This document shows, piece by piece, positions 29,086-55,006 of a stretch of DNA of 64,000 nucleotides; positions within the stretch are counted from its first letter, which is position 1, and each line of letters starts with the position of its first letter. Under the pieces are notes generated by a model that was not told the DNA's origin, did no database searches, and worked only from the letters and a program-made list of their open reading frames with translations. Source of the DNA: an uncultured Gemmatimonadales bacterium (GTDB lineage: Bacteria; Gemmatimonadota; Gemmatimonadetes; Gemmatimonadales; Gemmatimonadaceae). The stretch spans positions 1,632,001 to 1,696,000 of the forward strand of contig OY969695.1 of assembly GCA_963701965.1 (NCBI GenBank). The letters are read 5' to 3'. A program made the translations under genes and the position numbers.

Positions 29086-29108
29086 TCGGGGCGACGGGAT
29101 TGGAACCA
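29084..29108 (-). repeat. Degenerate copy of the tRNA-Pro 3' end (putative outer att site)
   Basis: AGTCGGGGCGACGGGATTGGAACCA matches 54931-54955 at 23 of 25 positions, same orientation. Confidence 0.7.
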
Positions 29109-35212: not shown

Positions 35213-36354
35213 GGGAAGTACGCCTTGAGCCGAAGCATCGGCTGCTCCAAGCAATACCAACTCGCAAGCGCGACCGCGAAGCTCGCCGCGACGCCGAGCG
35301 CGCTGAACGCCAACTGCGCCGGCAGGTGGGAGCCGAGGACGGCCGGCGCCGCGTCGGGCGCGAGGCCGCGGGCGTGGAGGAGACCTATGATCGGGAAGTG
35401 CACGACGTAGAGGCCGTAGCTGTAGCGGCCGAGGGTCCCGAGCGCCCGGCTCGAGAGCACGCGCTGCGTCCGGGTGCCGGCGTCCGCCGTCATGGCGGCG
35501 ACGACGAGCGCGGCGCAGATGGCGGCGATCGCGCTGTAGCCAAAGATCTCGAACTCCGGATAGTCGCGGTTGACGCTCGATCGCGCGACGAAACTGACCG
35601 TGATGAACAGCGTGCCGACCACTCCGGCGGCCGTCACCAGGCGATGCCAGCGCCGGAGACCGCCGTCGCTGCGCGCCGCGATCGCCAATAGCGCGCCGAC
35701 CGCGAGCGTATCGATGCGCGTGGGGGTCAGCACCCATGCGGCCATCGGGCTCGCGTGGGCGAGCCAAAGGCCGGCGCGCAACAGCGGACAGATCACGAGC
35801 AAGGCGACACAGATCCGTGTCAGCGTCCGTCGGTTGGCGAGGAGCACGACCGTCGGCCATAGCAGATAGAACTGCTCCTCGACGGCCAGCGACCAGAAAT
35901 GGGACGATCGCATCGGCGCCGCATCGAACCCATGCCACGCGATGAGATAGTTGGTGGTATAGGTCCAGTACCAGCCCTGGACGTGCCGGATGTTCGTGGC
36001 CGCTTGGGGAAATCGCGCCATGACGAGCGGGAGGAACGACGCACTGACGACCAGCGCCACGCAGATATAGTAGAGCGGGAAAATGCGCAGCGTGCGGCGG
36101 GCGTAGAAATTCCGGAAATAGCCGGGGTGGCCCTTACTGTCGAGCAGGATCCCGGTAATCAGGAAACCCGACAGCACGAAGAAGAGATCGACGCCCGCCC
36201 ATCCCCAACTCGTGATCTCGGCGACCACCTGATCGACGCGGGCGATCGGTGCGCTCCAATAGGCGGTGTGGAGCATCAGTACGGCCGCAATGGCTACGCC
36301 CCGGACCCCATCGAGGGTCGCAACGCGCGCGGATTCGTTCAGCGCTGGCCGCAC
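35140..36354 (-). CDS. Acyltransferase family 3 (OafA/YrhL-like)
   Basis: LDGVRGVA, GVDLFFVLSGFLIT, FYARRTLRIFP, HFWSLAVEEQFY and GRYSYGLYVVH motifs. Confidence 0.92.
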   Translation of the reverse strand: MRPALNESARVATLDGVRGVAIAAVLMLHTAYWSAPIARVDQVVAEITSWGWAGVDLFFVLSGFLITGILLDSKGHPGYFRNFYARRTLRIFPLYYICVALVVSASFLPLVMARFPQAATNIRHVQGWYWTYTTNYLIAWHGFDAAPMRSSHFWSLAVEEQFYLLWPTVVLLANRRTLTRICVALLVICPLLRAGLWLAHASPMAAWVLTPTRIDTLAVGALLAIAARSDGGLRRWHRLVTAAGVVGTLFITVSFVARSSVNRDYPEFEIFGYSAIAAICAALVVAAMTADAGTRTQRVLSSRALGTLGRYSYGLYVVHFPIIGLLHARGLAPDAAPAVLGSHLPAQLAFSALGVAASFAVALASWYCLEQPMLRLKAYFPYGSTRGPARASSSAVGPRAAPSI

Positions 36355-37063
36355 ATGTATACGGTACCAAGCGGGACAACAGGGCACCAGGCCGGATCCG
36401 GCGTGCGTTATTGCTTCGCCAAGTCCCCCAACATTGGTCGACGTCAACCGGGGGACGCGGAATTTCCGCGAGGACGGTTCCCTTGCCTTATCGACCGGCG
36501 ATTGCACATCGAGTCGTGCGGAATGAAACGGCGGACACCTTGTTGACGGTCGCTCCCGCCGTGCACCCGCTTTTGCCATTCTTGCTCGTGTTGGTCGGCT
36601 CGACCGGCCGGCGGCTGGGCAGCGTTCTAGGCCTACGCTGGACTGACGTCGACCTTGAGCGGCGTACGATCGTTTGGCGTGCGGCGCTCGACAAAGGACG
36701 GAAGACCTGGCAGTCACCGCTTCCAGAACTGGCGGCGACCGCGCTGCGCGAACGGGCGCGGGCGGTGGGATGGTACAGTAACGCGTACATCTTCCCTGCT
36801 CCGAAGAAGCCCGCCGTGTCGGCGACCCGACATCTCGCGGCGGTTTGGCTCCGGCGAGCGTACCGGATCGCCAAGATCGAAAGAGAACTGGGCGGGCTAT
36901 GGCACCCGTTTCGGCGGAAGTGGGCGACGGAGCGAAAGCACTATCCGGTGACGGACGTCGCGGCCGCAGGCGGTTGGCGCGACATCAACACGCTGCTCAC
37001 CTGCTATCAGCATCCCGACAGTGACACGATGCGCGCCGTCGTGGAGCTGAGCCCACTCGGGAG

Positions 37064-37087
37064 AAACGTACACACGAACGTACACAC
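37064..37087 (+). repeat. 12-bp tandem direct repeat, putative integrase arm-type site of the older island
   Basis: AAACGTACACAC-GAACGTACACAC, at the same position relative to att as the repeat at 54846. Confidence 0.6.
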
Positions 37088-37102
37088 CTCAGCGATAAAC
37101 GA

Positions 37103-37138
37103 ACTGGCGCCGCACGAGGAAGCTCGCACGGCGCCAGT
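37103..37138 (-). terminator. Hairpin downstream of the tRNA fragment (former tRNA terminator)
   Basis: Perfect 10-bp outer stem ACTGGCGCCG/CGGCGCCAGT; the inner mismatches become G-U pairs on the minus strand. Confidence 0.55.
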
Positions 37139-37148
37139 AGTTAGTTAG

Positions 37149-37193
37149 GTCGGGGCGACTGGATTTGAACCAGCGACCTCCTGCTCCCGAAGC
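37149..37193 (-). repeat. att site: perfect 45-bp copy of the 3' part of tRNA-Pro
   Basis: GTCGGGGCGACTGGATTTGAACCAGCGACCTCCTGCTCCCGAAGC is identical to 54932-54976. Confidence 0.97.
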
Positions 37194-37294
37194 TGGCTCG
37201 GAAGGTCACGAGTTTTGACAATTTGACGGACGCTAGAGGGAAACCGGGCATCGGTGCCGGGTTTTCGCGTTGTTCTCGAAGCAGTCTGCCGCAT

Positions 37295-38512: not shown

Positions 38513-39891
38513 TCGTGAGCAAATCGTTGGGGACATGTGCCGGCTTTCTCTACCCCTGCGTACTGAGTCTCTCGGCCGTTACGTCCCTGGCCCAGGGACC
38601 TTCGAACGCGACACTCGACCATGCGAGACACGCGGTCGTGCGAGTCGAAGTTGACGGCTGCGCCGCCGCTTCCCACTACGGAACAGGATTCTACGAGCAA
38701 TCGACCCACAATGTGGTACCGCGTATCATGTGATTGCGGGCTGCAAGGACATTGTCGTCGTGTCCGCTATGACCGGTGCACATCGCGTGGCGAGCGTGAC
38801 GCATGTGCTGCGGAAAGCTGACCTCGCGCTCCTGGCCGTCGACAATGTACCCGCGAGTACCACAGAGCTGGCTATCGGTACACCAACATATAACGCACAA
38901 GACCAGTTGATGGCGCTGGGCTATCCGTTACAGGCACCAGAGGTTGGAAGTGCCAAGCTCACGTACCGATTTGGCGCTCACACGTTACGGGGTATCCTCT
39001 CGACAACGCTGCAGAACCAAGTGCGGTCGGCAGGTGTGCCCGACTTGGATCTGCCGCTCGTCAGCCTCGATGGACACCTCCTGCCAGGCTTGTCGGGGGC
39101 ACCGATTCTGGATGCGCGTGGCGATGTCGTCGCGATCGGCGATGGTGGTGTCGACGAAGGTGCCGCCAGCATAAGCTTCGCGATCCCATCAGATCACATA
39201 CAGGCGCTTGCGGCCTCATCCGAAGCACTGAACGCGCCAGAGACGACGAGACTCACCGTTCTGTTCGCGGCTGACTTCGATTCCAAGGTCGGAACGAGCA
39301 CCCAATGCGGGCAAACGTCGTTCATACGCGTGCGCCAACGCTCGCTCGCCGATATGGCGCAGACAACAGACGATCCGTTTGGGCTCCAACAGCTACTGAC
39401 TGTCTTTCACATCGCCCCTCAGCAAGATATCCGGTTCGACGTATACCAAGACACGGCGTCGACCGCCACGTTCGTCTTGCCCGCAGGCGCCCAACTGCGC
39501 TACGCAAACGGATTCTGCAGCGCGCAATTGACTCCGGATATTGAGATACGACCTGCTCACGCAGACCGGCGGGCAATGGTTCATCGATCCCACGGTTACG
39601 TACCATGCAGCCGTTCAGCGACCGGATGGTTTGATTGCGATGAGAAAGGCCTGGTATCAGGTCAGTCCAATCACCGGCATATCGCCCCCTGAACGGTACG
39701 TCTTCGAAGTAGTCGCCCAGAAGCGCAATACGCTCCTCGGCTCATCCCTCACAAACGTGAACAACAGAGCGTTCGGTCAGTGTCGGCTTCAACCAATCGC
39801 TCCGGGCTGCGCGCAGCTCCTTCAACAAGACCAAAGCGCTTGGGAGAACGGAGTGCTCGCCATTCACCTGACGACATTTCCATCCAACTAG
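38509..39891 (+). CDS. Secreted trypsin-like serine protease; frameshifts near 38717 and 39545
   Basis: GTGF, TAYHV (His), DLALL (Asp) and PGLSGAPI (Ser) motifs; signal-like N-terminus. Confidence 0.75.
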
Positions 39892-40032
39892 CCGACCATT
39901 CCATTTCGTTCACAGCGCCATTTGCGGCGCGCATTCTACGGGACGAAGAGGATCGCGGGAGGTCGTGTCGGGCGGTTGCTGGCGCACGGCAATGACGACA
40001 TACCCGACTGATACTCGTTCGACAGGTAAACA

Positions 40033-40735
40033 ATGGAACCGCCCGACGAGCCATTGGACCGCGAGAGATTCCCTATACTCCGCGTCCTACCCGAGGCCGT
40101 CCTACGCGTACTGCGAAGACATTACTACGCGGGCGTGAAGGAAGCCGAAACAGGATTCCAGTTTCACGTGGCGGATGAAGATGCGGTGACCGGCGCTCTG
40201 GGAGAGCGCTTGATCGAGCCGCCAACGTGGATAACGGTGGATGGTCAGGAGTACATGTGGCGCACGTCCTACCATAAGCTGCGCGGCCGCGGCGCCAATG
40301 CCCCGGAGAAGCGCCTTGGCGCCAATGGTATCTTCCAGCTGGAAGTGCTGGGTCTGACCGGACGATTCAATGTGCGCAAGGGATTGCTCTTCCAGTCAAA
40401 AATCGGCTGGCAGGGCAGCGACTCGCAGTTGCTGGGGCAGGCCCGTACTCTGCTGGAGCTGTCGAGATCCGCAATCGTTATCGACTACGCCCCGGATGGG
40501 TACAAGGCGGTGGCGGCGACTGATGTTGTTGCAGCCAATGGAAACAGTAGACGAGTACGTCCCAGAGCAGCCCGGCAACTGGCAGAAGTGCTGGGGGATG
40601 GGCTCGTGAGCTGCACGAGGCGAAAATGGCCTCTATTGGGACGCGGAGCAGGAGCGGCTTGTTGTCGGCGGCGAGCGTGTCTCCGAGCTCGTGCCCGCAA
40701 GCGTCACAAACACGAGAATTGAGCGGATCCGGTAA
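40033..40735 (+). CDS. Putative PD-(D/E)xK-fold nuclease; apparent frameshift near 40620
   Basis: DEDAVTG...EKRLGANG...KGLLFQSK pattern resembles E...D...QxK nucleases. The C-terminus continues GLYWDAE in another frame. Confidence 0.5.
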
Positions 40736-40958
40736 GCACTTGGAGGCGGGAACAAGGATCCCAGGCCTTCTTAAGGATCGAGTGGCCAACGACGCGCGAA
40801 CGACGCCCCCTCTCATAGTCGACGCGAACAAGTACTCCCATGCCCGGACGACGGATCAGCATGTTCGCTTTAGGTTTCGGTACAGCAGGCGTTCATCGCC
40901 GCTAGCTGTTGCCGTCTTGCCGTGAGTATTGTCGCCAGCGACTTCCAACAACGTCAGT

Positions 40959-42179
40959 ATGCGTGGCGAACGAATGTCTTCGAATAGCGAGCTGTTGGAC
41001 TTAGCAGATTCGGCCTTCTGTGACAGGCTAAGGTTTGCGGTCCAACGATCTAGATCGTCGGGCGCCAACACGCTCACCGCGGTCTGTCGATCAGCGCGCG
41101 GTGCGTTTCCTACTTTGGTTGTTGAGACGCTTCGCGAGTTGGAGCCGCGCGCACCGGCGCTTCTTCAGCGCACGTGGGCCGACGACGAACCCGGGCATGT
41201 CGACTCAGCGCCACCCGCAATGCCGGAGCCTCACCCAATCGACTACGAGTGGCGGTATACGAGGTCGACCGCTGACGCGGTTGCTGCGTACGCGCAAGCT
41301 CTTCCAGGAGACATCGCTTGCGTCGGTACCCCGACAGTGTTCTGGCGTTTGCTACACTCTGGGATCAATGCGACGCTTTTTGACCGCAACGCAGACGTTT
41401 TGCAGTCGGTCGGATCTGCGCCGAAACACAACATCGTGCAGTGCGATCTGCTGGCATCATCGTGGGCGCCTCCCACAGTTGGCGCCTTCGGCGTGGTGAT
41501 TCTCGATCCACCATGGTACAGCGATCACACCCGCCTTTGGATCGCAAGAGCATTGCATTTGGTTCGACCGGGCGGGCGCCTGCTGGTCACATTGTTCCCC
41601 GAGCTCGTACGTCCGTCCGCGCACACCGAACGGCTTGAGCTGTTGGAATTGATGGAGTCCATCGGGAGAGTTAGTACACTGCCGTTTCCGGCCCTGTACG
41701 CGACCCCACGTTTCGAGAAGGAAACTCTAGACGCGCTAGGTTTTGCCGGTCTCGGGCAGTGGCGTTCTGGCGATCTGCTGGAAGTCGCCATCAATGCCAA
41801 CCCGCCAGCTATTGGTGCCGGCACGCCCTCAGAATCCACCTGGGATCGCGTTCAGCTCGGTACCCAGGTCGTCGCGGTTCGACGAGACGTGCCGAAATTG
41901 GGGCCGAGCGATTCAAAAGCTCAGCCGCTCAAAGTATCGCCGGTAATGCGAGATGGGTCCTACCTCTTGAAATCCGTCAGCGCAAGGGACGCGACGCGGT
42001 GTGACATCTACCTTTGGACCTCGCGCAATCGTGCGTTACGCGCCGACAATGGCGCGCCGACTCTGCTGCCATTCCTCCAGTGCTTGGAACGTGGCGAATC
42101 ACCTCGGACAGCTATCGACGCCGCGCCCCACGGCGACCGCAGAGCCCTCGAAATCGTCGTCGCCGTGATCGGCTGGTAG
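40959..42179 (+). CDS. SAM-dependent amino-methyltransferase-like protein (DPPW motif)
   Basis: IACVGTPT (motif I-like), LFDRN, VVILDPPWY (motif IV) and LVRPGG motifs. Start uncertain (40929/40959/40974). Confidence 0.7.
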   Translation: MRGERMSSNSELLDLADSAFCDRLRFAVQRSRSSGANTLTAVCRSARGAFPTLVVETLRELEPRAPALLQRTWADDEPGHVDSAPPAMPEPHPIDYEWRYTRSTADAVAAYAQALPGDIACVGTPTVFWRLLHSGINATLFDRNADVLQSVGSAPKHNIVQCDLLASSWAPPTVGAFGVVILDPPWYSDHTRLWIARALHLVRPGGRLLVTLFPELVRPSAHTERLELLELMESIGRVSTLPFPALYATPRFEKETLDALGFAGLGQWRSGDLLEVAINANPPAIGAGTPSESTWDRVQLGTQVVAVRRDVPKLGPSDSKAQPLKVSPVMRDGSYLLKSVSARDATRCDIYLWTSRNRALRADNGAPTLLPFLQCLERGESPRTAIDAAPHGDRRALEIVVAVIGW

Positions 42180-42207: not shown

Positions 42208-42243
42208 TTGACATTGGTCCGACACAACGATATTGTTGTGTCG
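42208..42243 (+). promoter_or_regulatory. Sigma70-type promoter with overlapping palindromic operator; probably a leaderless transcript
   Basis: TTGACA (42208), 17-bp spacer, TATTGT (42231). Perfect inverted repeat CGACACAAC-N6-GTTGTGTCG (42220-42243). GTG start lies 6 nt after the -10 box. Confidence 0.75.
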
Positions 42244-42680
42244 TGATTCCGCCTTTTGGCGTGAGCGGGAATCTTCCGCCCGGTATTCATGTTGCGACGT
42301 GGGACGAGGTGACAACTCGGCTGGGTGCTACTTCCCAGCGCCGACGGCTTGTCGCCGGTCTGCGACTGGGATTAGCCCAACTTCGACTCGCTGGCTGCGC
42401 GCGGGCTTACATAGACGGAAGTTTTGCGTCGAGTGAACCGACTCCGGGCGATTTCGACGTCTGCTACGAAACGCGCGGTATGGATCCGCAGTTTCTCGAT
42501 CCCGTGTTCTTCGACCAACGATCCAACCGCGCCGCGCAGAAGGCCAAGTACGGCGGCGAATTCTTCCCGAGTTTATTCCCGGCTGCGGTGGGGTACACGT
42601 TTCTTCAATTCTTCCAGGTGGATAAGCGCACCGGCGACGCCAAAGGCATCGTGGCCATAGATCCGAGGGACGTGCCATGA
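42243..42680 (+). CDS. DUF6932-like minimal nucleotidyltransferase (Pol-beta fold)
   Basis: GNLPPGIH, YIDGSFASSEPTPGDFDV (GS...DxD), FFQVDK and KGIV motifs. Confidence 0.85.
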   Translation: MIPPFGVSGNLPPGIHVATWDEVTTRLGATSQRRRLVAGLRLGLAQLRLAGCARAYIDGSFASSEPTPGDFDVCYETRGMDPQFLDPVFFDQRSNRAAQKAKYGGEFFPSLFPAAVGYTFLQFFQVDKRTGDAKGIVAIDPRDVP

Positions 42681-44196
42681 TCAAGAATGAGCGACAGTAT
42701 CGAATTGCTACGGCCGAAGCCGCGCGTTTCAGCGAGGCTCTAGCCTCACGTCCTAACGCGCCTCCGGAGAACTCGGACATCGATCCACGCTTTTGGGACG
42801 CGGAAACGGAAGCCATGCACGCGCAGCTAGAGGAGCTACGCGCAGAGCTTTCAGCGTACGATGCCCTGCAGAGCGGAACTCACCGACTCTTCGACGTGCG
42901 TGGTTGGCAAGACGTGCCGCGCGCACTCGTGCAAGGTCGCATCGCTATGGGGCTGACCCAGAAGGATCTTGCAGAGCGCCTTGAACTTCCCGAACAGACG
43001 ATTCAACGGTACGAAGCGACCGAGTATGCGGCTGCCAGTTTGTGGCGACCCGTGATATCGCGACAGCGCTAGGTCTCGAACTGTCCGGTTTCACTATCGC
43101 GCCTGATGCGGAGCCAACGCCATCACGCTTTTTCGAGCATCTCAAGGAAATCGGACTTGATAGACGTATCGTCTCCGAGAATCTCCTCCCACCGGCGCTC
43201 GCATCAGCTATGCTCGCACCAGCCAAGGCTAGGACCAAGATATATGGCGCAGTAATGCAAGTCGCTGGTCTCGTAGAGCGTATTTTCGGTATTCCTCCTT
43301 CGGTGTTATTCGGCAACGAGCCTCTAACAGCATTTGTGGTCCCAGCGACTGCGGCCAGATTCAAACGACCTAAGGTCCGAACAAAGGCGAACGTCGATCG
43401 CCAAGCAATCACCGACGGTTACACGTTTTTTGTACACTATCTCGCGTTGCTAGTACTGGAGACAACGAGCCATTTACCGCGCGAACCGGTTCCAGAGTCG
43501 CCTCAAGAATGGCGCAGTCGGATTCTGAGGCAATTTGGCAGCTTGGAATTCGAGCATGTCGTACAGTTCTTTTGGAGCGTCGGAATTCCAATCCTTCCGC
43601 TGAGGGACAGCGGGATTTTTCATGGAGCTTGCTAGCGTATCGGCGGGCACGAAGTCATCGTGCTAAAGCAACGCACGCTTTCGGAGGATCGATGGACGCT
43701 GGATGTGCTCCACGAGGGTGGCCATATTGTCCAAGAGCCCCTTAGCGAATCGTTTCAGATTCTCGAGGACGAAACTCCCTGGTTTGATGATCCGAGAGAA
43801 CAGAACGCTACACGCTTTGCCAGCGAGATCTTACTGGACGGGAAAGCGGATGCTATGGCAGAGCGCGCGGTCAATTTAGCGAATAACAATGTTCGTTTTC
43901 TCGAGCGCGCCGTGCGAAGAATTGCGGACGAAGCCAGCGTACCGCTCGGTGTGCTGGCGAACTATCTAGCCTATCGGATTGCCGCGGATACACGGGATGC
44001 TTCCGAGCCGATTAACTGGTGGCCAAGTGCGGCACGTCTGCAACGTCAACGGAATGATCCATGGAAGATTGCACGCGACGCGCTTCTTGAGCATGCAGAT
44101 TTTGCTAGACTGAATCCAATTGATCGAGACCTGCTTGTTCGGGCTCTCATGGACCCTACTGTAGAACCCGCGGCGAAGGGAGGAACCAACACATGA
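42677..44196 (+). CDS. XRE-family HTH fused to ImmA/IrrE-like Zn metallopeptidase; 1-bp frameshift near 43050 and in-frame TAG at 43633
   Basis: MIKNERQY, GLTQKDLAERL...IQRYE (HTH). ORFs 43042..43635 and 43660..44196 share one frame (FHGAC*RIGGHEVIVLKQ). HEGGH and downstream E (REQNATRFA) present. Confidence 0.8.
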
Positions 44197-44927
44197 CCGA
44201 TGCGCCAAATAAGCTAAAGATCTCGTGCGGCACGGTCGATTGTGAGAATGGACTTCACTGTTATCTACGCACGAAGCGTGAGGCTCAGAAAGCAAGCCGA
44301 CAAGTTCGGTCAACGAGAGCGATCAACGGGACAAACGCGGCTGAAATGAATAGCAGTTCAGAGGTGGCATCGCCCAAGACCGCTGGATTTGATACTGGCC
44401 TGTCAATTGGAGATGTGGTTCAAAAGAGAGCGACATCACGACAATGTAAGGCCTGCGGCGTGAATCTTGTGGACTGGGAGCGCATCGGACAACGCGATAT
44501 CCGCAATGTGAAGCACACGTTTCAAGCCATGCGTACCGAGTGGATTCGGCACTATTTCTGGCACGTATCCATCGACAGCGTGGCAGTAGACTACGCATTC
44601 CGCAAAGGGAAACAGCAATTACGCGAACGCCTAGCAGGTCGTATTCGAAGTGCAATTGGAAAGTCAGCAGATCAACTCTTCCGCAATGGTGCGCAGACGC
44701 CGCTAGGCACAACCCCGAGGGCAGAGAATATCATGTACTTTGCGCAACATGCGACGGCGAGCTGCTGCCGCAAATGCGTTGAAGAATGGCACTCGATACC
44801 CCGGAATCGAGTCTTGTCAAACGAGGACATCGAATATCTCACAGACTTGGGTATGTGCTACATACTGGAGCGACTACCAACACTGCCGGAGGACGCAGCT
44901 GCAGTTTCCACTTCGGACGGCGAGTGA
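44193..44927 (+). CDS. DUF4186-like protein with extra N-terminal Cys/His cluster
   Basis: GAQTP, AQHATASCCRKCVEEWHSIP and LSNEDIEY motifs; N-terminal CxxxxCxxxxHC...CKAC. Confidence 0.8.
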   Translation: MTDAPNKLKISCGTVDCENGLHCYLRTKREAQKASRQVRSTRAINGTNAAEMNSSSEVASPKTAGFDTGLSIGDVVQKRATSRQCKACGVNLVDWERIGQRDIRNVKHTFQAMRTEWIRHYFWHVSIDSVAVDYAFRKGKQQLRERLAGRIRSAIGKSADQLFRNGAQTPLGTTPRAENIMYFAQHATASCCRKCVEEWHSIPRNRVLSNEDIEYLTDLGMCYILERLPTLPEDAAAVSTSDGE

Positions 44928-45033
44928 CAGCGAATCGCTGGAGTGAGGCTAGCTCGTTTGTGCGCTCATACCCGATGCTTGTCATGCGGCAGTTGATTGA
45001 ACACGCTGACTCAAAGATTGTCGGAAGGACTAG

Positions 45034-46002
45034 ATGAGCCCACGCGGAGTGATCAAGACAGATTCGTATTCCGCTGAACTTCGAGCACGAGCTATCGACC
45101 TAACTCAAAAGCGCGTGCTCATCGCTGATTTGCGCGGGAGCCAACAAGCAAAGGATCTAACCGTTCCGCCAAACTGCAGTGGCTACGGCAGGATCCGTCA
45201 TTTTTCTAGAAGGACGATACCTGACTGGCCACCGAACTCATTGCCGATCGACCCGGCTTGTGCGGCACTTGGCTTGTCCCGCTCGGATGCTCTCAATGCC
45301 CAAGTGTTTCAGAATGCGGCCTGCAATTGGCGTTGCTGGTACTGCTATGTTCCGTACGAACTCCTGTCCGCCGATTCGAAGCGGGGCGCCTGGCTTTCGG
45401 CCGATGATATATTGGACCTGTATTTAAAGGAGCCTGAACAGGCTCGAGTCATCGATTTGAGTGGCGGCCAGCCCGACCTGGTGCCCGAGTGGTTGCAATG
45501 GATGGTGGAAGCGGTTGAATCGCGTGGGCTTGAGAAGCAAGTCTATCTGTGGTCGGACGACAATCTCAGCAACGACTACTACTGGCAGTATTTGACGGAA
45601 CACGCTAGGGAAGCAATTTCCTCCGCGCGCAACTATGGCCGCGTATGCTGCTTCAAGGGATTTGATGATCGGTCATTCTCATTCAACACTCAGGCGGCAT
45701 CAGACTTGTTTAGTCGACAATTCGAACTGTTCGGCCGCCTCATGTCCGAAGGGATTGATCTATACGCTTATATGACGTTCACGACGCCTTATTCGAATGG
45801 CATCGCAGACGCCATGACGCGTTTCGTCGATCGCCTGCAGGAACTTAGCCCCAACCTTCCCTTGCGCGCCGTGCCGTTAGAGATTCGTCCGTACACGCCA
45901 ATGCAAGCTCGCATTGGCCCGCAGGAGGAACGTGCACTCGATCTTCAGCGAGTCGCGTGCGAAGCTTGGCTGCGGGAGATCGACCGACGTTTTCTCGGCT
46001 AG
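45034..46002 (+). CDS. Radical SAM enzyme of unknown substrate
   Basis: CNWRCWYC (CxxxCxxC) at 45322-45345; DLSGGQP (GGE-motif variant). Confidence 0.9.
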   Translation: MSPRGVIKTDSYSAELRARAIDLTQKRVLIADLRGSQQAKDLTVPPNCSGYGRIRHFSRRTIPDWPPNSLPIDPACAALGLSRSDALNAQVFQNAACNWRCWYCYVPYELLSADSKRGAWLSADDILDLYLKEPEQARVIDLSGGQPDLVPEWLQWMVEAVESRGLEKQVYLWSDDNLSNDYYWQYLTEHAREAISSARNYGRVCCFKGFDDRSFSFNTQAASDLFSRQFELFGRLMSEGIDLYAYMTFTTPYSNGIADAMTRFVDRLQELSPNLPLRAVPLEIRPYTPMQARIGPQEERALDLQRVACEAWLREIDRRFLG

Positions 46003-46053
46003 CGAGCGCAATGTACCGATCAATGCCGTCGCGTTGCGACCGACCAGGATCCC

Positions 46054-46593
46054 GTGATCGACTTCGGACTGCTACAAGAGGCGGTTCGAGCAGATTCATA
46101 TTGGTCGGCGTACCTACGGAGCTCGGGCGAGCGTCAGGCAATTCGGATGCACCTTGCGATCTTCGTTGAGCCTTTTCTTGGCTTTGTTCTCGATGGCAGC
46201 AAGACGATCGAATCGAGATTTAGCGTCAACGCGACCGCCCCATACGGCCGCGTCTCCCGCGGTGACGTGGTTCTTCTCAAGCGATCTGGTGGGCCAATTT
46301 GTGGCATATGTCAGGCTGCCAATGTCTGGTACTATGAGCTCGACAAACGTGCCTGGCGTGAGATTCGTCGTCGATTTGCGACAGCCTTGCGACTCAATGC
46401 GCCTGACCTCAAGGATCGTTGCAATCGCGCCAGCTACGCCACTCTTATTCGCCTAAAGCACGTCTCGCCGACGCTGCCTATTGGCGTTGCGAAACGCGAT
46501 AGACGCGGGTGGGTCGTTCTGACAGAATCGAACCATCTGCTCAACCTGTTCGAATATTCGGAATGTCGGCAGGCTATTCGATACTCTCGTTGA
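46054..46593 (+). CDS. ASCH (PUA-like) domain protein
   Basis: HLAIFVEPFL...LDGSKTIESRF (GxKxxExR), GDVVLLK and RDRRGW motifs. Confidence 0.85.
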   Translation: MIDFGLLQEAVRADSYWSAYLRSSGERQAIRMHLAIFVEPFLGFVLDGSKTIESRFSVNATAPYGRVSRGDVVLLKRSGGPICGICQAANVWYYELDKRAWREIRRRFATALRLNAPDLKDRCNRASYATLIRLKHVSPTLPIGVAKRDRRGWVVLTESNHLLNLFEYSECRQAIRYSR

Positions 46594-46707
46594 TTGGAGC
46601 AAGAGTGGTGAGCGTTCTCGCGCCACGTCGTGCATTCTTGTAGCTAGAAGATAGCCGTCGAGGAATACCCGGTTTCAGTTCACATCTTCGCTAGGTAATC
46701 GTCTCAG

Positions 46708-47289
46708 ATGAGGTTGACTGTTATTGGGATCGCGGGGCATGCCAAGAGTGGCAAGAGCACGTTGGCTCAGGCGTTATCGGATCGACTGGCGCTTCCACGC
46801 GTTAGCTTCGGGACCGAAATACGAAAGATTGCTGGAGAACGCGGCGAGCCCGTCACGGACCCAGCACGCGCGACCGAAAGAGCGGTGCTCATGCGTCACG
46901 GAGAACATCTCGTTGCGCATGAGACGGAAATGCTCTGCCGTCGGGTTATCGCCCAAGCAAACTGGAGAGAAAGAGGGGGCGTCATCATAGACGGCATACG
47001 ACATGTCGTCGTCGTAGAGACTCTTCGTCGAATTCTATCGCCGGTGTCGCTGTTCTTGATTCTGGTTAACACCTCCGCGAACGAACGCGAGCAGCGTTTC
47101 GTCGACGCCGGGCTGGGTCCTTTGACACGCGCCGTCATGGACGCTCATTCAACTGAGCGCGAAATTCCAGACGAGATCGCGTTACTCGCGGATCAAGTAG
47201 TCGACGGAGCAGTTGACGCCAGCGTCACTGTGGACGCGGTAGTCGCAGCTATCGAAGCACGGTCCTTGTCGCGCGGCGTGCCTGATTGA
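46708..47289 (+). CDS. P-loop nucleotide kinase-like protein (NMP/dephospho-CoA kinase fold)
   Basis: VIGIAGHAKSGKST (Walker A), SFGTEIR, VIIDGIRH and HSTE motifs. Confidence 0.85.
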   Translation: MRLTVIGIAGHAKSGKSTLAQALSDRLALPRVSFGTEIRKIAGERGEPVTDPARATERAVLMRHGEHLVAHETEMLCRRVIAQANWRERGGVIIDGIRHVVVVETLRRILSPVSLFLILVNTSANEREQRFVDAGLGPLTRAVMDAHSTEREIPDEIALLADQVVDGAVDASVTVDAVVAAIEARSLSRGVPD

Positions 47290-47313: not shown

Positions 47314-48309
47314 CTAGTACGGTATACTGAAGTCCTCGTGCACAACGATCGAGGCGAATTCGTGCACGCCGTTTGGTCTCACCCAGTAGTGTAGGTGGAA
47401 CTCGTAATCAATGTCGCGACGCCACGCGCGTGCACCGTCAGTTTGGCGAACTAGGTCCGGGTCGTTGCCGCCGTTGCCGGTCCGGAGTCAATGTGGCTTC
47501 CCAGTGTTCAACTGCAATAGTGTATCAGCGCTCGCGTTCAGCAGTCGCTCGATCTTGGCAGTCTCATGACAGAAACCAAGGGCCTGTGCGGACTGCAGAA
47601 ATTCGGACCCTAGAGCACAAATAACATTGATCGGCCAGATAAGTGCACCGCCCTGCATGGCCTGGCGTTGAGCAGTTCGCATCTCGATCGCAGCTCGCTC
47701 GCAACCTGACAGTTGCCAAAGCGCGGAAGCACTCTCCAGACCAATGAAGCCGGCCAAATTCTCAACCAGCGCGGCGTCGATACGATACTCCGTCTCTTCT
47801 GGCTCATTCGTTTCCACGCGCTGGATAAGAGCTGAGCCCATCACAGTGACCGCAAATGTTGTGTTTGCGGTACCTCGCGTCCACACAATCGGGTCCCTAC
47901 CTCCAGCTTGCTCCTGTCGGAACGCCGCCAACCCCAGGAGGTGGTGATGGTGTTCAATGAACAATTGCGGTCGATTGACAAGATGCGAGTCGGGATTGCA
48001 TGCGGATGTTACGCATACCAATTCGACGACTTGTGCGACGTCTTCGGCGGTGGTGCCGCCTAGCAAGGAGTAGACCAGGGTGACGATATCGTGGCGCGCA
48101 ATCTCGCGAGAATGCGGGCCTCCAACCCAGACCGGATAACTCTGTGTTTTTGCGAGGAGTTCGCTGGCATCAGCGGCGGAAACGATTCTCACCCATCGCT
48201 GCTGCTGCAATCGCCGCAACTCCAACAGTTGTGATACGTATTCGTCTCTTGCGGCGGTCGTGTCGGAATCGAGCGCGACAGCATACGCGTCAAGATACAC
48301 ATCAGGCAT
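47314..48309 (-). CDS. ATPase-associated effector with putative C-terminal RelE-like domain; in-frame TGA at 47488-47490
   Basis: The start overlaps the ATPase stop. After the TGA the same frame continues LRTGNGGNDP...AWRRDIDYEFHLHYW...EFASIVVHEDFSIPY*. Confidence 0.65.
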
Positions 48310-50185
48310 TCTGATTATTACCCGGCCGACTCCGCCGCTTCCGAATCCCCGCTTCAAGAATCGACGCTGCTGAGTTCTCCGTTTCATCGAAAAACCCTAC
48401 CGGCCACTCTTCAAGCACTCCATACTCGTTGACGATTACACGGCGATATTGTGATTGCCTGTCGATCTGTTCGACAAAGTAAAGTGCGATCGAATCCGCC
48501 ATGGTCGGCTCGCTCGTTGCAGCGGCCCAATAGCGAAGGCGATTGACCAAGTGCTCGCTGTGTGTCTCTACCACACATTGCTTGCCGAGTCGAGCCATGG
48601 CAACGAAGAAGTCTGCCAAACGTGTCTGTGCCTTCGGATTCAGATGCACCTCTGGTTGTTCGAATAACAGTGTAGCACCGGACGGCGCCACGAGCGCCAT
48701 CACTAGAACCGGAAGAACTTGACTCACACCGATGCCTACCTGTGTAAGGTCAAACTCCGATCGAAGTTCATAACCAAGTCGGCCTATACTCACACTAATT
48801 GCTTCACTCCCTACGCCGAGAAATGCAAGCCATTCGTTGACTGCTTGCAGAAGATTGACCTCCGTCTGACCTGCCAGGTTGCGGTCAGCTACGAATCTCT
48901 CTGGAGGCAAATGGGGCACCTTAGCTTCACTGTAAAGATCGAGCACGGCTGCCGTGTGCTCGCCACTCACTCCGACATCCCACGATTCGGACCCGCCGAC
49001 AAGCGGGTAAACGGTGCGGGGCGCGGTCCGGATGGGTCCGAGATAACGAACAGAGGTGACGAAGAAATCACGTATCGCTAACGACGAGTCTCGTATGACA
49101 GGTGGAAGCTGCCGGTGCTCAGCGGCCTTCAGACCAAATTGTGTGACACGAACTGCGCGTAGCAGATCGTCCCTTCGGTCTGCTAGCGCTTTTGCGAGCT
49201 GTCGCCGATAGTCCGGCCGTAGTGTGCGATAACTGGCAACGAATTGTGCGGTGGAAAACTCCAGTTGCTCGAGCAGCGCGGCAGCGGACTGCGCGTCCGG
49301 CGTTCCTATTGATTTGAGAACTTGCAGCAGTATGGCCCTGACTTCGGCATTTAGGACTTGGTCAGCTTCAGTCGCAAGCGTGTCTCCCGGCGGATCGTCC
49401 AACTCTTGGACGGACTCAAGTAGCGCACTAACAAACGAATTAGATGCGCGCTCTGCGGCATCATATACGACTGTGATTCTTCTTGGGAGGAAATGAGTGA
49501 GAGATGCTCCAACCGGCATATCGCTACCGGATCGTCTCCGCGACCGATCAGCAAAATCGACAACCTCGTAGTCGAAGGACTCAAGGACTCGAGACGGGAC
49601 GCGACCTTCGATACCGAGACCCAAATCAACTAGTCGATTAACCCGCGGCGACCCTAGCCGCCGCATGTGGATTCCGGCACCAGGTGGCCGTTCGCTCATG
49701 GATCGAAGGTCGGCGTTCGTCCTGCTAGCACGACTATCTCCGATGTCGACCCACGACTCCAGCCGCGACTCGTGAAGATCGGGATGAAGCTGGGGCAGTC
49801 GTCGACCATCTGTAGATGGGGCGATAAACGCGTAGGAACATCGGACGAGCGCTTGCCGCGATGTATCGCTTGGCCAGAACCTCCCAGCGAATGATGCGAG
49901 TCGCTCTGATGAAACCCTCAGCGAGAACCCGATCTCCACGATTGTGCGCTCTGCGTACCTACAGCGCACGTCTTCAAATGTGCCCAACCGCACGAGAGGA
50001 CCATTAAGAATAACCGGCATATTGTTGAGAGGACTGCGCAGCGTTTGCGCGGTCATCAGGATGCTCTGGATGACGGTGCTCTTTCCCGCGCTATTAGGAC
50101 CGGTCAGTATCGTTAGCGGCGCCAGCGTCAGCAATGTATTGGCTTGTACGGATTTGAAGCAGTGCAATCGCCATTCAATGAGCAT
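48302..50185 (-). CDS. ABC-type AAA_21/DUF3696 family ATPase
   Basis: FKS, GPNSAGKS (Walker A), VGIGVSQ (signature), LLFEQPEVHL (Walker B/D-loop), VETHSEH (H-loop) and WPVGFFD motifs. Confidence 0.9.
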   Translation of the reverse strand: MLIEWRLHCFKSVQANTLLTLAPLTILTGPNSAGKSTVIQSILMTAQTLRSPLNNMPVILNGPLVRLGTFEDVRCRYAERTIVEIGFSLRVSSERLASFAGRFWPSDTSRQALVRCSYAFIAPSTDGRRLPQLHPDLHESRLESWVDIGDSRASRTNADLRSMSERPPGAGIHMRRLGSPRVNRLVDLGLGIEGRVPSRVLESFDYEVVDFADRSRRRSGSDMPVGASLTHFLPRRITVVYDAAERASNSFVSALLESVQELDDPPGDTLATEADQVLNAEVRAILLQVLKSIGTPDAQSAAALLEQLEFSTAQFVASYRTLRPDYRRQLAKALADRRDDLLRAVRVTQFGLKAAEHRQLPPVIRDSSLAIRDFFVTSVRYLGPIRTAPRTVYPLVGGSESWDVGVSGEHTAAVLDLYSEAKVPHLPPERFVADRNLAGQTEVNLLQAVNEWLAFLGVGSEAISVSIGRLGYELRSEFDLTQVGIGVSQVLPVLVMALVAPSGATLLFEQPEVHLNPKAQTRLADFFVAMARLGKQCVVETHSEHLVNRLRYWAAATSEPTMADSIALYFVEQIDRQSQYRRVIVNEYGVLEEWPVGFFDETENSAASILEAGIRKRRSRPGNNQNA

Positions 50186-50531
50186 GTGCCTCCTCGAGCC
50201 GAACGTGAGCGTCACATTGGTGTGCTTCACCATTACAACCTAAGTTCGCGACCTAACGGCCCCACAGTTCTCGGACTCGGACTCGGCCAGCCGGCATCAG
50301 TCCCGCGACCGAAATCGAAGAGGCCGAAAGCTCGGACACTGTCTTCAGAATCCGCAGACGCGAACTGGTCGACAAGCACTCCGACATCGCGCGGCAAATC
50401 GTGCAGATGCACTCGATATCACCTATCACCGGCACCACGGCCACCGAGTAGGTGCGGTCGAGTTCGGGATTGCCGACCTGCATTGTCACGAAGGCATATG
50501 TATGCTCGTCAATTGCCTCCCAGTTCCGAAC

Positions 50532-51297
50532 CTATGTCACATCACCACCACGACGCGCGCTGCGGCGCAGCTGCTCGAGCTCGGCCCGCAACGGCGCCCA
50601 ATATGCGCGGTCAAGCTCCCGCTCCATTGCCTCCTCGGCGGTCAGGGCCTCCTCCAGCCGCACCTTGTCACGCGCAGTGGCGGCGTCCAACAGCGGACGC
50701 TCGGCAACTATTTCGCGCGCAGCGGTTCGGAACCGGTGCACCGCCTCGACGAGTAACACCGGCGTGCGCAGCTCGCGCAACCAGAATCGCGCCTCGGTGG
50801 GCGCAGGACGCGATGTTCCGCCGAGGTAGCTGACTTCCATGAGCCGGCGAATCATCGGCCAGTCCTTGTCCCGCTGAGTCTTCTTAGACACGACGAGATC
50901 GGACAAACCAATCACATTGACGGTGAGACCATTCTGGTAGCGCGCGGGTCTGACGTCGCGACACAAGCGCGCGAAATGGGTCGACCCCGCGGAGGCGCGC
51001 CATGACGTCAATGCGCATGCCCGCGACGTCCGGGCGTTCACACTCAAAATGAATCGCATGACCGCGCTCCAGGTATTGGAGCTCGAATGGTGGCACCGCA
51101 ACGACTCTCGCCTGAAGGTCGGCGAGGGCCGCCTTCAATCGCGAGAGATTGTCAGCGTCTGCGAGGACGGCGAGATCGGTGTCCCGGCTGAACTCCGCTG
51201 CCCCGTACAGAATGCACGCCTGACCGCCGATGAGCAGACTGTCGACGGAGAATGCCCGGATCGAAGAAAGGACTCTGTGTATCGGGCTCGGGCCCAA
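50532..51297 (-). CDS. Nucleotidyltransferase (AbiEii/DUF6036-like); frameshift near 50940
   Basis: LLIGGQACILYG...SRDTDL and RIDVM motifs, then DLVVSKKTQRDKDW in the 50532..51101 frame. Confidence 0.75.
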
Positions 51298-51463
51298 GCG
51301 TGCCTCCCAGGGCGAGATAGTCGACCCACATCTGAGAGCTGGCCGTCCAACGCTCCTCTGGCGTCATACGGTACCAAGCTGCCCATTCGGGCTCGCAGAG
51401 GTCTTCGATTTCGACGCGGCGTCGCGAAACGGCCGCTCTAGACCGACGATCTGAGGGGGTCAC
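51152..51463 (-). CDS. Small partner protein overlapping the NTase (antitoxin-like)
   Basis: EWAAWYRMTPEERW...YLALGGTL.PEPDTQSPF; overlaps the NTase start. Confidence 0.55.
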   Translation of the reverse strand: MTPSDRRSRAAVSRRRVEIEDLCEPEWAAWYRMTPEERWTASSQMWVDYLALGGTLGPEPDTQSPFFDPGILRRQSAHRRSGVHSVRGSGVQPGHRSRRPRRR

Positions 51464-53626: not shown

Positions 53627-54883
53627 CGGCTGGTACAAAGTGGACGGACGATGGGCGCGAGTGCTCGGCGAGCGAGGGTGCCGCGTCCGGCTGTTTGAGA
53701 TGACGAAGGGTGGTCCTTTTTATCGGACTGTGTGGGTCTCGGGTCGCGGGAAGGACCGGAAGTGCCTACACACTTCGGACAAAGCCAGAGCCGAGCGCCT
53801 GGGACTCTCGTTACTCACGTCCCTGCTACAGGGACTGGCTCCAGCACCGGAAACGCCGCTGACACTGGGCGATCTCTGGAATCGGTATCGCACCGAGTGC
53901 CGGACATTCCACGCCACGAGGCCACGGTGGCAGTTGGAGTGCGGGGACGCATGAAGTGCTTGATCGCGTACTTCGGTGCCGGTTGCCAGGTGCGCGAACT
54001 GTCCGCCGACGATGTGGCAGCCTACACAGCCACCCGGCGCGCCGGCGGGATCGTGGTCGACGAGGACTACACGACTGGCGCGGTACGTCCGCGAAGCGTC
54101 GATGTCGATCTTACGTTGCTCAATCGCATCTTGAACTGGGCAGTTTCGGTACGAGTGAATGGCGTTCGACTGCTAGACACCAACCCGCTCCGCGGCGTTC
54201 AGCGCGTGCGGGAGCACAAATCGCGAAGACCGTTGGCGACCTGGGATCGCTTCCTGGTCACACGCAAGGCACTCCGCGAATTGGCGGACGAAGCGATTGA
54301 TGACGCCGAACACCTGCGGTTCGTGAAGATCGAGTTCGCGCTGGTACTCGCCGAAGCTACGGGACGCCGGCTCGGTTCGATCCGCCAGCTCGAATGGTCG
54401 GACATAGATCTGGAGGGCGGCGTGATTCGTTGGCGCGCCGAGGCGGACAAGCAGGACGCTGAGTGCCAGGTGCCGATCCCGGCGGCACTCGGCGAGGAGA
54501 TTCGCGCATTCCGGAAGGAGCTCGCGACGGTCGGCGGGCTATGCTTCCCCTCCGAGCAAGACATCACGGTGGCGATGAGCCGGTATCAGTTCGCCAAATG
54601 GCTCCGGCGCGCGGAGAAGAAGGCGAGGCTGCCGAAACTCGCCGGCGGCCTTTGGCACCCATATCGCCGAAAGTGGGCGACCGAACGCAAGCACCTCGCA
54701 ATCGCCGACGTCGCGGCCGCCGGCGGGTGGCGTGATAAGGCGACGTTGCTCAACTACACCCAACCAACCGATGACGCCATGCTCGCGGTCATGAGCGAGC
54801 CCACCAAGCTCCGAGACGTGGCATTAGCCGGCCAAACGAAGCCACGGAACGGGTCACCAAATGGGTCACGGCCCGAGATGTAA
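53613..54883 (+). CDS. int: Tyrosine recombinase/integrase; apparent frameshift near 53930
   Basis: GGAGG RBS; N-terminus in the 53448..53954 frame; TGRRLGS, WHPYRRKWAT, AAAGGW and LLNY motifs; adjacent to the tRNA. Confidence 0.92.
54846..54869 (+). repeat. 12-bp tandem repeat, putative integrase arm-type site (proximal arm)
   Basis: GGAACGGGTCAC-CAAATGGGTCAC, matching 37295-37318. Confidence 0.75.
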
Positions 54884-54920: not shown

Positions 54921-54932
54921 CGGTTAGATGAG

Positions 54933-55006
54933 TCGGGGCGACTGGATTTGAACCAGCGACCTCCTGCTCCCGAAGCAGGCGCGCTACCGGGCTACGCTAC
55001 GCCCCG
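54933..55006 (-). tRNA. tRNA-Pro (anticodon CGG), CCA not encoded
   Basis: Reverse complement CGGGGCG...CCTGC-TTCGGGA-GCAGG...GGTTCAAATCC...CGCCCCGA folds as a cloverleaf. Confidence 0.97.

Follow-up and report, generated by a model that had tools for sequence, protein, structure and literature searches.

A seven-gene cassette in a tRNA-integrated island

The window, meaning the whole 64,000-nucleotide stretch analyzed here from an uncultured Gemmatimonadales bacterium, contains an island of about 17.8 kb integrated at tRNA-Pro, within which seven genes on one strand form a cassette whose GC content is 0.565, against 0.671 for the genome. The initial annotation had recognized a cluster of six; that cluster is real, but a seventh gene, encoding a SAM-dependent transferase, had been overlooked. 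The features, in window coordinates, are as follows.

37149–37193, no strand: left att site, 45 bp matching part of the tRNA-Pro gene at 100%; island boundary
40929–42179, plus: SAM-dependent transferase, BpsA fold with DPPWY motif; seventh cassette gene, alternative start ATG at 40974
42208–42236, plus: sigma70-type promoter, TTGACA-17-TATTGT
42222–42241, no strand: putative palindromic operator, ACACAAC-N6-GTTGTGT, overlapping the -10 box
42243–42680, plus: DUF6932 minimal nucleotidyltransferase (NTase)-type protein (GSF..DxD); toxin-antitoxin partner slot
42677–44196, plus: N-terminal partner domain, XRE HTH and M78/IrrE Zn-peptidase (HEGGH); broken gene
44193–44927, plus: long DUF4186 protein, putatively Zn-binding, whose N terminus bears an additional Cys/His cluster
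45034–46002, plus: radical SAM enzyme of an uncharacterized family, PFL-activase-like fold
46054–46593, plus: ASCH-domain protein with K50/E53/R55 triad and basic KRDRRGW motif
46708–47289, plus: P-loop kinase, nucleoside-monophosphate-kinase fold (Walker A, DGxRH)
53732–54883, plus: tyrosine integrase of the island
54932–55006, minus: tRNA-Pro(CGG), the integration site

Much of the earlier description of the locus stands: the six genes lie on the same strand at the positions given, with four-base ATGA overlaps between NTase and HTH genes (42677–42680) and between peptidase and DUF4186 genes (44193–44196) and remaining gaps, put at about 50–115 bp, of 106, 51, and 114 bp, and the proposed tRNA-integrated island has its att copy, tRNA-Pro, integrase, and low GC. 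The motifs it named are all present in the window and conserved among relatives (GSF..DxD in 46/50, HExxH in 55/55, CCxxC...WH in 51/56, GxKxxExR in 51/54, and Walker A in 55/56, with CNWRCWYC conserved in the radical SAM protein). For the XRE/IrrE gene, the HTH and HExxH are indeed there, but the gene is not intact. Its reading frame is spread over three ORFs (42677–43072, 43042–43635, and 43660–44196), interrupted near 43049, where a single base shifts the frame, and again by a TAG at 43633–43635, a position occupied by Trp in 40 of 48 parsed homologues, whereas in relatives it is a single protein of about 486 aa. The transferase gene lies upstream of the promoter in the window and between the radical SAM and ASCH genes in relatives. 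Because the peptidase half is severed and the transferase falls outside the operator-controlled unit, the window copy is probably not inducible unless the breaks, to which contigs from the one DNA run listed do not extend, are assembly errors.

Conservation and distribution

Among the best 80 of 220 genome loci, a top-scoring subset, all seven genes occur together in 52, and 49 of these share one order; the conserved gene order that had been put forward for checking is thus found across phyla. Individual genes are present in 77 (HTH-peptidase), 76 (DUF4186), 75 (kinase), 70 (ASCH), 66 (transferase), and 65 (NTase) of the 80. The cassette reaches more than 10 bacterial phyla and one archaeal assembly, but sporadically, with none in 300 other genomes of the phylum. 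Intact copies sit on plasmids of cultured, non-pathogenic strains; among plasmids, radical SAM and ASCH queries match the same seven records, and several copies carry in-frame fusions between cassette parts (ASCH-kinase, ASCH-DUF4186, DUF4186-radical SAM, and transferase-ASCH). The gene set and its order, the operator, the mobility, and the folds and motifs together show a conserved, mobile block of seven genes.

No PADLOC system (PADLOC-DB 2.0.0, 2023, protein models) covers the cassette, in line with the earlier remark that the gene combination has no named system, and a description of the operon was not found in the literature searched; outside that literature, Iyer et al. 2013 (10.1093/nar/gkt573) or the supplementary neighborhood figure of the EOLA1 preprint could show it. 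In the accessible part of one report (PMC9679502), some cassette genes are merely listed within an 18.4-kb plasmid insertion. At E ≤ 1e-20, the radical SAM family numbers 3,422 database members, with no match in 50,697 phage records and, in viral contigs, 54 pattern matches of which none was confirmed. The ESM Atlas returned only unnamed clusters for the radical SAM and DUF4186 proteins, and PDB sequence searches were uninformative for the NTase, DUF4186, and the transferase.

A regulatory front with an exchangeable partner

The promoter ends 6 bases upstream of the NTase GTG start, and the NTase transcript is likely leaderless. A consensus scan found one such site versus 4.0 in shuffled sequences and so gives no excess in itself; the candidate promoter, called strong in the initial annotation, draws its support from being conserved in homologues. 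The palindrome over its -10 box is kept in 68 of 70 loci and in all 22 held-out loci. It was not found at three of three free-standing NTase-HTH loci and is therefore specific to the cassette. The initial annotation's HTH plus IrrE-like control is supported in the form of an autoregulated HTH-peptidase front.

The NTase, in contrast, does not appear to be the pathway step it was taken for. It lies upstream of the regulator in 65 of the 80 genome loci, and DUF4160 takes that place in 20 of 20 NTase-less regulators examined; on plasmids, the NTase is found 28 times, with the cassette in only 7 cases. Judged from sequence, the front resembles PD-lambda-2: it consists of a swappable toxin-antitoxin pair that has an HTH-M78 peptidase. 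On a Rhizobium lentis plasmid, the same DUF6932 NTase is the first gene of a PD-lambda-2 B+C operon, and both PD-lambda-2 and RosmerTA place a small toxin-antitoxin partner before an HTH-M78 fusion. The match of the cassette regulator to PD-lambda-2_B, however, reaches only E 4e-4 to 1e-5, compared with 4e-74 for the Rhizobium protein, and five enzymes follow in place of the beta protein. Neither the window genes nor intact cassette genes match PD-Lambda-2_C (positive control, locus L186, 5.5e-38), and with this P4 beta-like third gene missing, the cassette is not a PD-lambda-2 system. RosmerTA was likewise rejected, as RmrA matches cover no more than brief HTH or HExxH segments (E 5e-12 at best). 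For the N-terminal domain of NTase-less regulators, a by-eye likeness to DUF2442 was set aside, given no Pfam DUF2442 match and only 3.8 bits against the window's own DUF2442 protein.

The enzymes and their optional companions

The closest fold to the radical SAM enzyme is PFL activase (Z 17.1, rmsd 3.3, 229 aligned residues), with the next match at 13.4, spore photoproduct lyase third at 13.0, and viperin at 12.2. PFL activase acts on a protein, but at 11% sequence identity, the fold says little about substrate, and no glycyl-radical enzyme partner was found by Pfam/NCBIfam among the seven cassette genes, the recurring flank families being only partly named. The viperin analogy drawn initially proved loose: the enzyme scores 21.7 bits against viperin model NF038283 (cut-off 180), only around the CxxxCxxC region, and matches PADLOC pVip at E 7e-6 over 73 residues only. 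With its fold also nearer PFL activase, it was rejected as a prokaryotic viperin. Like pVip, the cassette lies in defense-rich regions and encodes an NMP-type kinase close to a CxxxCxxC radical SAM enzyme, and the two likely share a modified-nucleotide logic, but the cassette has five additional conserved genes and a putative operator of its own. Ophion, an anti-phage system of radical SAM, PHP, and PRTase proteins (bioRxiv 10.1101/2025.09.30.679545), is likewise multigenic, pairing a non-viperin radical SAM enzyme with nucleotide-metabolism partners. As far as its accessible text describes, it has no kinase, ASCH, DUF4186, transferase, or regulatory front, and the cassette, in which no PHP or PRTase domain occurs among the seven genes, was rejected as an Ophion system on gene content. 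In most loci, the DUF4186 gene immediately precedes the radical SAM gene, and in one (L035) the two are fused; DUF4186 and ASCH profiles are unrelated.

For the transferase, the best structural match is BpsA (Z 21.2, rmsd 3.5, 265 residues aligned over model residues 23–354), at 12–14% identity. BpsA, a branched-chain polyamine synthase, requires a GDDD motif, according to the accessible part of PMC12979288. The cassette enzyme shares the overall fold, but GDDD occurs in none of 50 aligned family members, which have G-x-P-S and DPPWY instead, and it was rejected as a BpsA. DPPWY, in 49 of the 50, is a (D/N)PP(Y/F/W) motif IV on a class I SAM fold, the mark of amino (N6-A, N4-C, or protein-amine) methyltransferases. 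METTL5 is a further structural match (Z 16.4), and 26 of the 50 match PF10237, a family that includes protein-lysine methylases. In both loci opened, distant transferase homologues adjoin a metallophosphoesterase gene, which in the one scanned bears a Pua-like domain.

The ASCH protein keeps K50 and R55 invariant and E53 in at least 90%, with the basic KRDRRGW-type motif in 52 of 54 aligned members; 26 of the 54 match PF04266 at E ≤ 0.01, the window protein itself not among them. A K/E(T)/R triad is a feature of the N4-acetylcytidine deacetylases YqfB and EOLA1, and ASCH relatives function in salvage, according to the accessible text of a preprint (bioRxiv 10.64898/2026.08.01.741249). The cassette ASCH has the K-x-x-E-x-R triad intact, but its match to EOLA1 spans 20 residues only (E 0.35), it has an extra N-terminal helix and the KRDRRGW tail, and no acetyltransferase occurs among the seven genes. 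The kinase resembles NMP kinases, as well as the kinase portion of the dCTPase model in PADLOC (E 3e-8).

Some copies carry further genes, absent from the window. An insert with the dCTP-deaminase fold occurs in 26 of 80 loci from metagenomes and 9 of 80 from genomes; it lacks Glu at the aligned site in all 31 parsed sequences and has a C-terminal hydrophobic helix in 33 of 36 matches. In 6 of 80 metagenome loci, the radical SAM gene is followed by a MazG-like gene. Seven loci contain an inserted TylF O-methylase gene, and ThyX adjoins cassette-less distant radical SAM relatives in four (two identical). Together with the ASCH triad, which is intact, the dCTP-deaminase-fold and MazG-like inserts suggest a modified cytosine nucleotide as the product.

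Defense genes, whose nearness was another point put forward for checking, are enriched: 32 of 141 flanking proteins match PADLOC at E ≤ 1e-15, versus 5 of 110 controls (Fisher p 5e-5), the controls being non-mobile DNA from seven genomes of one phylum, while mobile islands are defense-rich whatever their cargo. Removing five generic-domain matches and merging repeated cyanobacterial neighborhoods leaves 18 distinct matches by hand count. Neighbors include transmembrane and TIR-domain proteins, and no transporter recurs among flanking families.

Discussion

The reading we tentatively favor is that this mobile cassette defends against phage or other invading DNA through a modified cytosine (deoxy)nucleotide, made upon predicted release of a repressor from the operator. 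The HTH-M78 protein, paired with the NTase or, in other copies, DUF4160, would bind the palindrome and repress the promoter until a trigger switches on the peptidase, lifting repression. The BpsA-fold enzyme would then transfer a SAM-derived group to an exocyclic amine, the radical SAM enzyme, aided by Zn-binding DUF4186, would further alter the nucleotide, and the kinase would phosphorylate it. The product might poison replication or act through effectors that read it, among them the optional dCTP-deaminase-fold protein with its membrane anchor, and ASCH would read or remove the modification. Set against this are the nearness of the radical SAM fold to PFL activase, the PF10237 affiliation of the transferase family, the optional nature of the cytosine-pointing inserts, missing from the window, and a core that has no nuclease or other constant effector.

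Rather unlikely, but the best placed of the alternatives, is modification of bases within DNA or RNA, marking self or tagging the invader, with transferase, radical SAM enzyme, and kinase as writers and ASCH and DUF4186 as readers. The amino-methylase motif, the METTL5 match, the basic ASCH motif, and the metallophosphoesterase beside distant transferase homologues would fit. There are precedents in the accessible parts of two reports: in phage M6, a P-loop kinase and a radical SAM protein act on DNA (gp53 radical SAM, 5-hmU DNA kinase; PMC8989533), and (PIN)-GNAT-EVE operons, predicted to modify bases and found in defense contexts, contain ASCH followed by an AAA_17/18-type P-loop protein (PMC7641849). 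M6 thymidine hypermodification shares the enzyme pair and the pyrimidine setting, but no aGPT-PPlase occurs among the seven cassette genes; nor does any GNAT, EVE, or PIN, and in place of the GNAT-EVE fusion of the (PIN)-GNAT-EVE operons, the writer here would be a radical SAM enzyme with a BpsA-fold transferase. Further, the core has no restriction nuclease or target-recognition domain, dCTP-deaminase-fold, MazG-like, and ThyX proteins act on free nucleotides, and BpsA, the best transferase match, is a small-molecule enzyme.

An improbable alternative is that the cassette is a damage-inducible repair or pool-cleaning pathway, not anti-phage, reversing or recycling damaged or foreign-modified pyrimidines. 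MazG-like and dUTPase-fold proteins are typical pool cleaners and IrrE-type peptidases respond to DNA damage, both of which count for it, as do the spore photoproduct lyase match and the salvage role of ASCH relatives; the sporadic distribution, toxin-antitoxin front, transmembrane and TIR-domain neighbors, and defense-gene enrichment argue against it. Protein modification seems distinctly improbable: a PFL-activase-like enzyme and a lysine-type methylase would act on a host, phage, or cassette protein (e.g., DUF4186), gating the toxin-antitoxin front, as the top fold match, PF10237, and the adjacency or fusion of DUF4186 to the radical SAM gene would allow, but at such low identity the likeness to PFL activase tells little of the substrate, and the NMP-kinase fold, ASCH, and dCTP-deaminase, MazG, and ThyX neighbors would go unexplained. 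Least probable is a selfish addiction module whose toxin-antitoxin-peptidase front keeps the element while five enzymes make an unrelated metabolite (e.g., a nucleoside antibiotic), for although most NTase-bearing plasmids have no cassette, TylF is sometimes inserted, and BpsA, like many radical SAM enzymes, is biosynthetic, no transporter recurs and the operator is cassette-specific.

Alongside defense through a modified cytosine nucleotide stands a bolder and unlikely proposal, a new immune pathway in which the radical SAM enzyme, BpsA-fold transferase, and kinase would build an N4-substituted (deoxy)cytidine second messenger. Its reader would be a catalytically disarmed dCTP-deaminase receptor anchored in the membrane in some copies and the toxin-antitoxin-peptidase switch in other copies, and ASCH and MazG-like enzymes would erase it. 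If the favored reading is true, a biosynthetic, nucleotide-modifying immune pathway would extend across more than 10 bacterial phyla and one archaeal assembly, the radical SAM family, DUF4186, and DUF6932 would gain a first function, and a BpsA-fold transferase would be at work outside polyamine synthesis.

A widely conserved seven-gene cassette

Our results revealed that the cassette is a real and widely conserved system of seven genes, encoding an NTase (DUF6932), an HTH-M78/IrrE peptidase (the regulator), DUF4186, a radical SAM protein, a transferase, an ASCH protein, and a P-loop kinase. The radical SAM protein had 3,422 relatives at E<=1e-20, and its family formed 166 clusters (50% identity, E<=1e-30). 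Scanning a single genome for each species confirmed 220 loci, and the best 80 of these 220 contained the HTH-peptidase in 77, DUF4186 in 76, the kinase in 75, ASCH in 70, the transferase in 66, and the NTase in 65, with several of the absences attributable to contig ends. The complete set was present in 52 of these best 80, and 49 of the 52 retained the order NTase, regulator, DUF4186, radical SAM, transferase, ASCH, kinase. The same partners recurred in a metagenome scan seeded with more distant relatives (334 loci, the best 80 analyzed, many of them short): transferase 60, ASCH 49, kinase 47, DUF4186 45, regulator 44, and NTase 22. Further, cassette genes were joined in frame as ASCH-kinase, ASCH-DUF4186, DUF4186-radical SAM, and transferase-ASCH fusions. 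By record titles, carriers comprised cyanobacteria, Chloroflexota, Planctomycetota, Acidobacteriota, Actinomycetota, Pseudomonadota, Verrucomicrobiota, Bacillota, Deinococcota, Nitrospirota, Bacteroidota, Myxococcota, and one thaumarchaeal assembly. Despite this spread, the cassette was absent from all 300 further genomes sampled in the window's phylum and is therefore sporadic and mobile.

The window copy and its island

The ORFs, overlaps, and gaps of the initial annotation were borne out when the window sequence was re-read. Its operon of six genes was correct in that six are co-oriented, but it fell one short of the cassette, the seventh member being a separate ORF:

40929-42179: transferase, cassette member, 416 aa

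This protein is 26-30% identical to the product of the gene that intervenes between radical SAM and ASCH on Nostoc and Rhizobium plasmids, and the window copy of the cassette is rearranged, with its transferase displaced from that position. The ORFs assigned to an XRE/IrrE gene likewise lie where they had been placed, but the gene is split into three pieces. Specifically, alignment with intact homologues (~486 aa) changes frame between 42677-43048 and 43051-44154, and the latter segment is interrupted by a TAG at 43633-43635, a position occupied by Trp in most homologues. This copy is probably non-inducible. The other six proteins keep nearly all family-conserved residues, with 1 to 6 differences each.

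The surrounding island spans ~17.8 kb, is delimited by an exact 45-bp duplicate of a tRNA-Pro segment, and has its integrase at the tRNA-Pro end. A second integrase (36249-37148) and a weak 25-bp partial match to the same tRNA (29084-29108, 92%) suggest a second, tandem island at this tRNA (29084-29108, 36249-37200). Upstream of the transferase, 38730-40722 (+) contains an ORF for a trypsin-like protease and, at 40033-40722, an orphan of 229 aa that looks nuclease-like; neither had a homologue in the 84 related loci. At 50532-51463 (-), ORFs in different frames overlap and resemble a split nucleotidyltransferase-type gene with a small partner; a Pfam search returned no match for them.

A predicted operator and an exchangeable front module

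Immediately 5' of the first start codon, the -10 box coincides in part with a palindrome, ACACAAC-N6-GTTGTGT. With up to two mismatches, it was present at 68 of 70 NTase-bearing loci (the window among them), which were also the loci that supplied the pattern, at 22 of 22 held-out metagenome loci, and at none of nine NTase-less loci with upstream sequence. Elsewhere, it occurred at two places in 1.5 Mb, one of these an additional site close to the same gene, and the only perfect copy in the window's genome is that of the window. The palindrome would be bound by the HTH of the regulator.

The front module, that is, the regulator and its toxin-antitoxin-type partner, is exchangeable: all 20 NTase-less regulators examined differ at the N-terminus and are directly preceded by a DUF4160 gene. 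DUF4160 and DUF2442 form the DhiTA toxin-antitoxin pair (PMC8198452, PMC12065111). Upstream of DUF4160 in four NTase-less loci (L131, L142, L153, and L155), the ACACAAC operator is absent and a different AT-rich near-palindrome can be seen by eye. The NTase also occurred on 28 plasmids, only seven of which carried the cassette. Intact cassettes exist on plasmids of cultured, non-pathogenic strains such as Nostoc NIES-3756, Tolypothrix PCC 7712, and Roseovarius THAF8. Among three NTase plasmid loci opened, one had a short HTH partner and two an HTH-peptidase matching PD-lambda-2B, followed in one of the two by PD-lambda-2C. In PD-lambda-2, the XRE-peptidase was reported to be the toxic component, rescued by the upstream gene (PMC9519451). 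On a Rhizobium lentis plasmid (L186:3001-6361), DUF6932 replaces the HigB-like gene heading a PD-lambda-2 B+C operon.

Predicted enzymes and candidate substrates

The predicted radical SAM model (pLDDT 94) best matched PFL activase (Z 17.1), followed by QueE (13.4), spore photoproduct lyase (13.0), and viperin (12.2). This ranking, and a score of 21.7 bits against a viperin cut-off of 180, make the viperin analogy drawn initially a loose one. Distant cassette-less relatives provide a second context for the family: they adjoin WD40 proteins (L087, L088, L089, L099/L105, and L146; a glutaredoxin-WD40 in the one scanned), with ThyX also present in some.

The transferase model (pLDDT 88) aligned with BpsA across 265 residues (Z 21.2) and with METTL5 across 172 (Z 16.4). 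Since the GDDD motif of BpsA is absent (0 of 50 aligned rows) and DPPWY is present (49 of 50), N-methylation, or the transfer of a related SAM-derived group to an amine, appears more likely than polyamine synthesis. Genes for shorter homologues are paired with a metallophosphoesterase gene in two-gene units (L187:6992-9345 and L188:6908-9363), possibly another undescribed writer/reader system; in L187, the only one of the two scanned, the metallophosphoesterase carries a Pua-like domain.

The ASCH protein retains K50/E53/R55, a triad that YqfB and EOLA1 use on free N4-acetylcytidine (bioRxiv 10.64898/2026.08.01.741249). The kinase has an NMP-kinase fold, with archaeal SSO1041 as its nearest full-length solved relative (E 5e-14) and weak matches to (d)CMP kinase and the kinase part of the PADLOC dCTPase model. 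DUF4186 has two conserved Cys/His clusters; a search for a relative with a solved structure found none.

Taken together, optional inserts and neighbors suggest that the substrate is a pyrimidine (deoxy)nucleotide, cytosine being the simplest reading. Of the best 80 of 334 metagenome loci, 26 had a dCTP-deaminase-fold gene within or next to the cassette, usually separating DUF4186 from radical SAM; among the best 80 of 220 genome loci, nine had one. Other inserts were a MazG-like gene (six of the same best 80 metagenome loci) and a TylF O-methylase (seven loci); ThyX adjoined cassette-less radical SAM relatives in four loci. The window's copy has none of these inserts. A solved deaminase has a catalytic Glu, and none of 31 parsed rows of the dCTP-deaminase-fold protein had Glu at the aligned position; 33 of 36 matches end in a hydrophobic helix. 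This protein could be a nucleotide-sensing membrane effector. The MazG-like variant (L092, L094, L095, L097, L098, and L100) has the gene 3' of radical SAM and a transferase-ASCH fusion wherever the contig extends far enough. Three of these loci also encode, upstream, a protein whose N-terminus carries hydrophobic helices and for which Pfam gave no match.

Genomic context and relation to known systems

Flanking proteins were sampled as the nearest ORF of 150-900 aa per side, where present, in the best 80 of 220 genome loci. Of these 141, 32 matched PADLOC at E<=1e-15, among them pAgo, CBASS and Pycsar cyclases, RM subunits, AbiEi, dGTPase, and SoFic; 18 remained by hand count after five generic matches were dropped and related cyanobacterial neighborhoods collapsed. 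The control gave 5 of 110 ORFs (18 arbitrarily placed regions, 7 genomes) and, since it is non-mobile DNA, the enrichment supports a defense-island location, not a defense function. In seven cyanobacterial loci (L002, L015, L028, L029, L035, L041, and L052), a dGTPase gene lies directly 3' of the kinase, and in five related cyanobacterial loci a pAgo-Cas4-like pair lies upstream. Adjoining the window cassette, 47488-50233 (-) encodes an ABC ATPase with a C-terminal DUF3696 that matches PADLOC NsnB (E 1e-70), as well as HEC-03B and PDC-M55A; with a 299-aa orphan in the NsnC position, it forms a Menshen-like pair, beside which no NsnA was identified.

The cassette was rejected as a member of three known systems: PD-lambda-2, which is wired alike, and viperin and Ophion, which likely work similarly, pairing radical SAM with nucleotide enzymes. 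The initial view that no named system fits held, PADLOC 2023 giving only single-domain matches for the seven genes. No description of the operon was found in the literature searched; Iyer et al. 2013 and the EOLA1 preprint supplement may bear on priority. We infer all chemistry and function of the cassette. A specific modified-nucleotide mechanism is a tentative proposal, somewhat short of an even chance, while a role in conflict or defense is reasonably likely.
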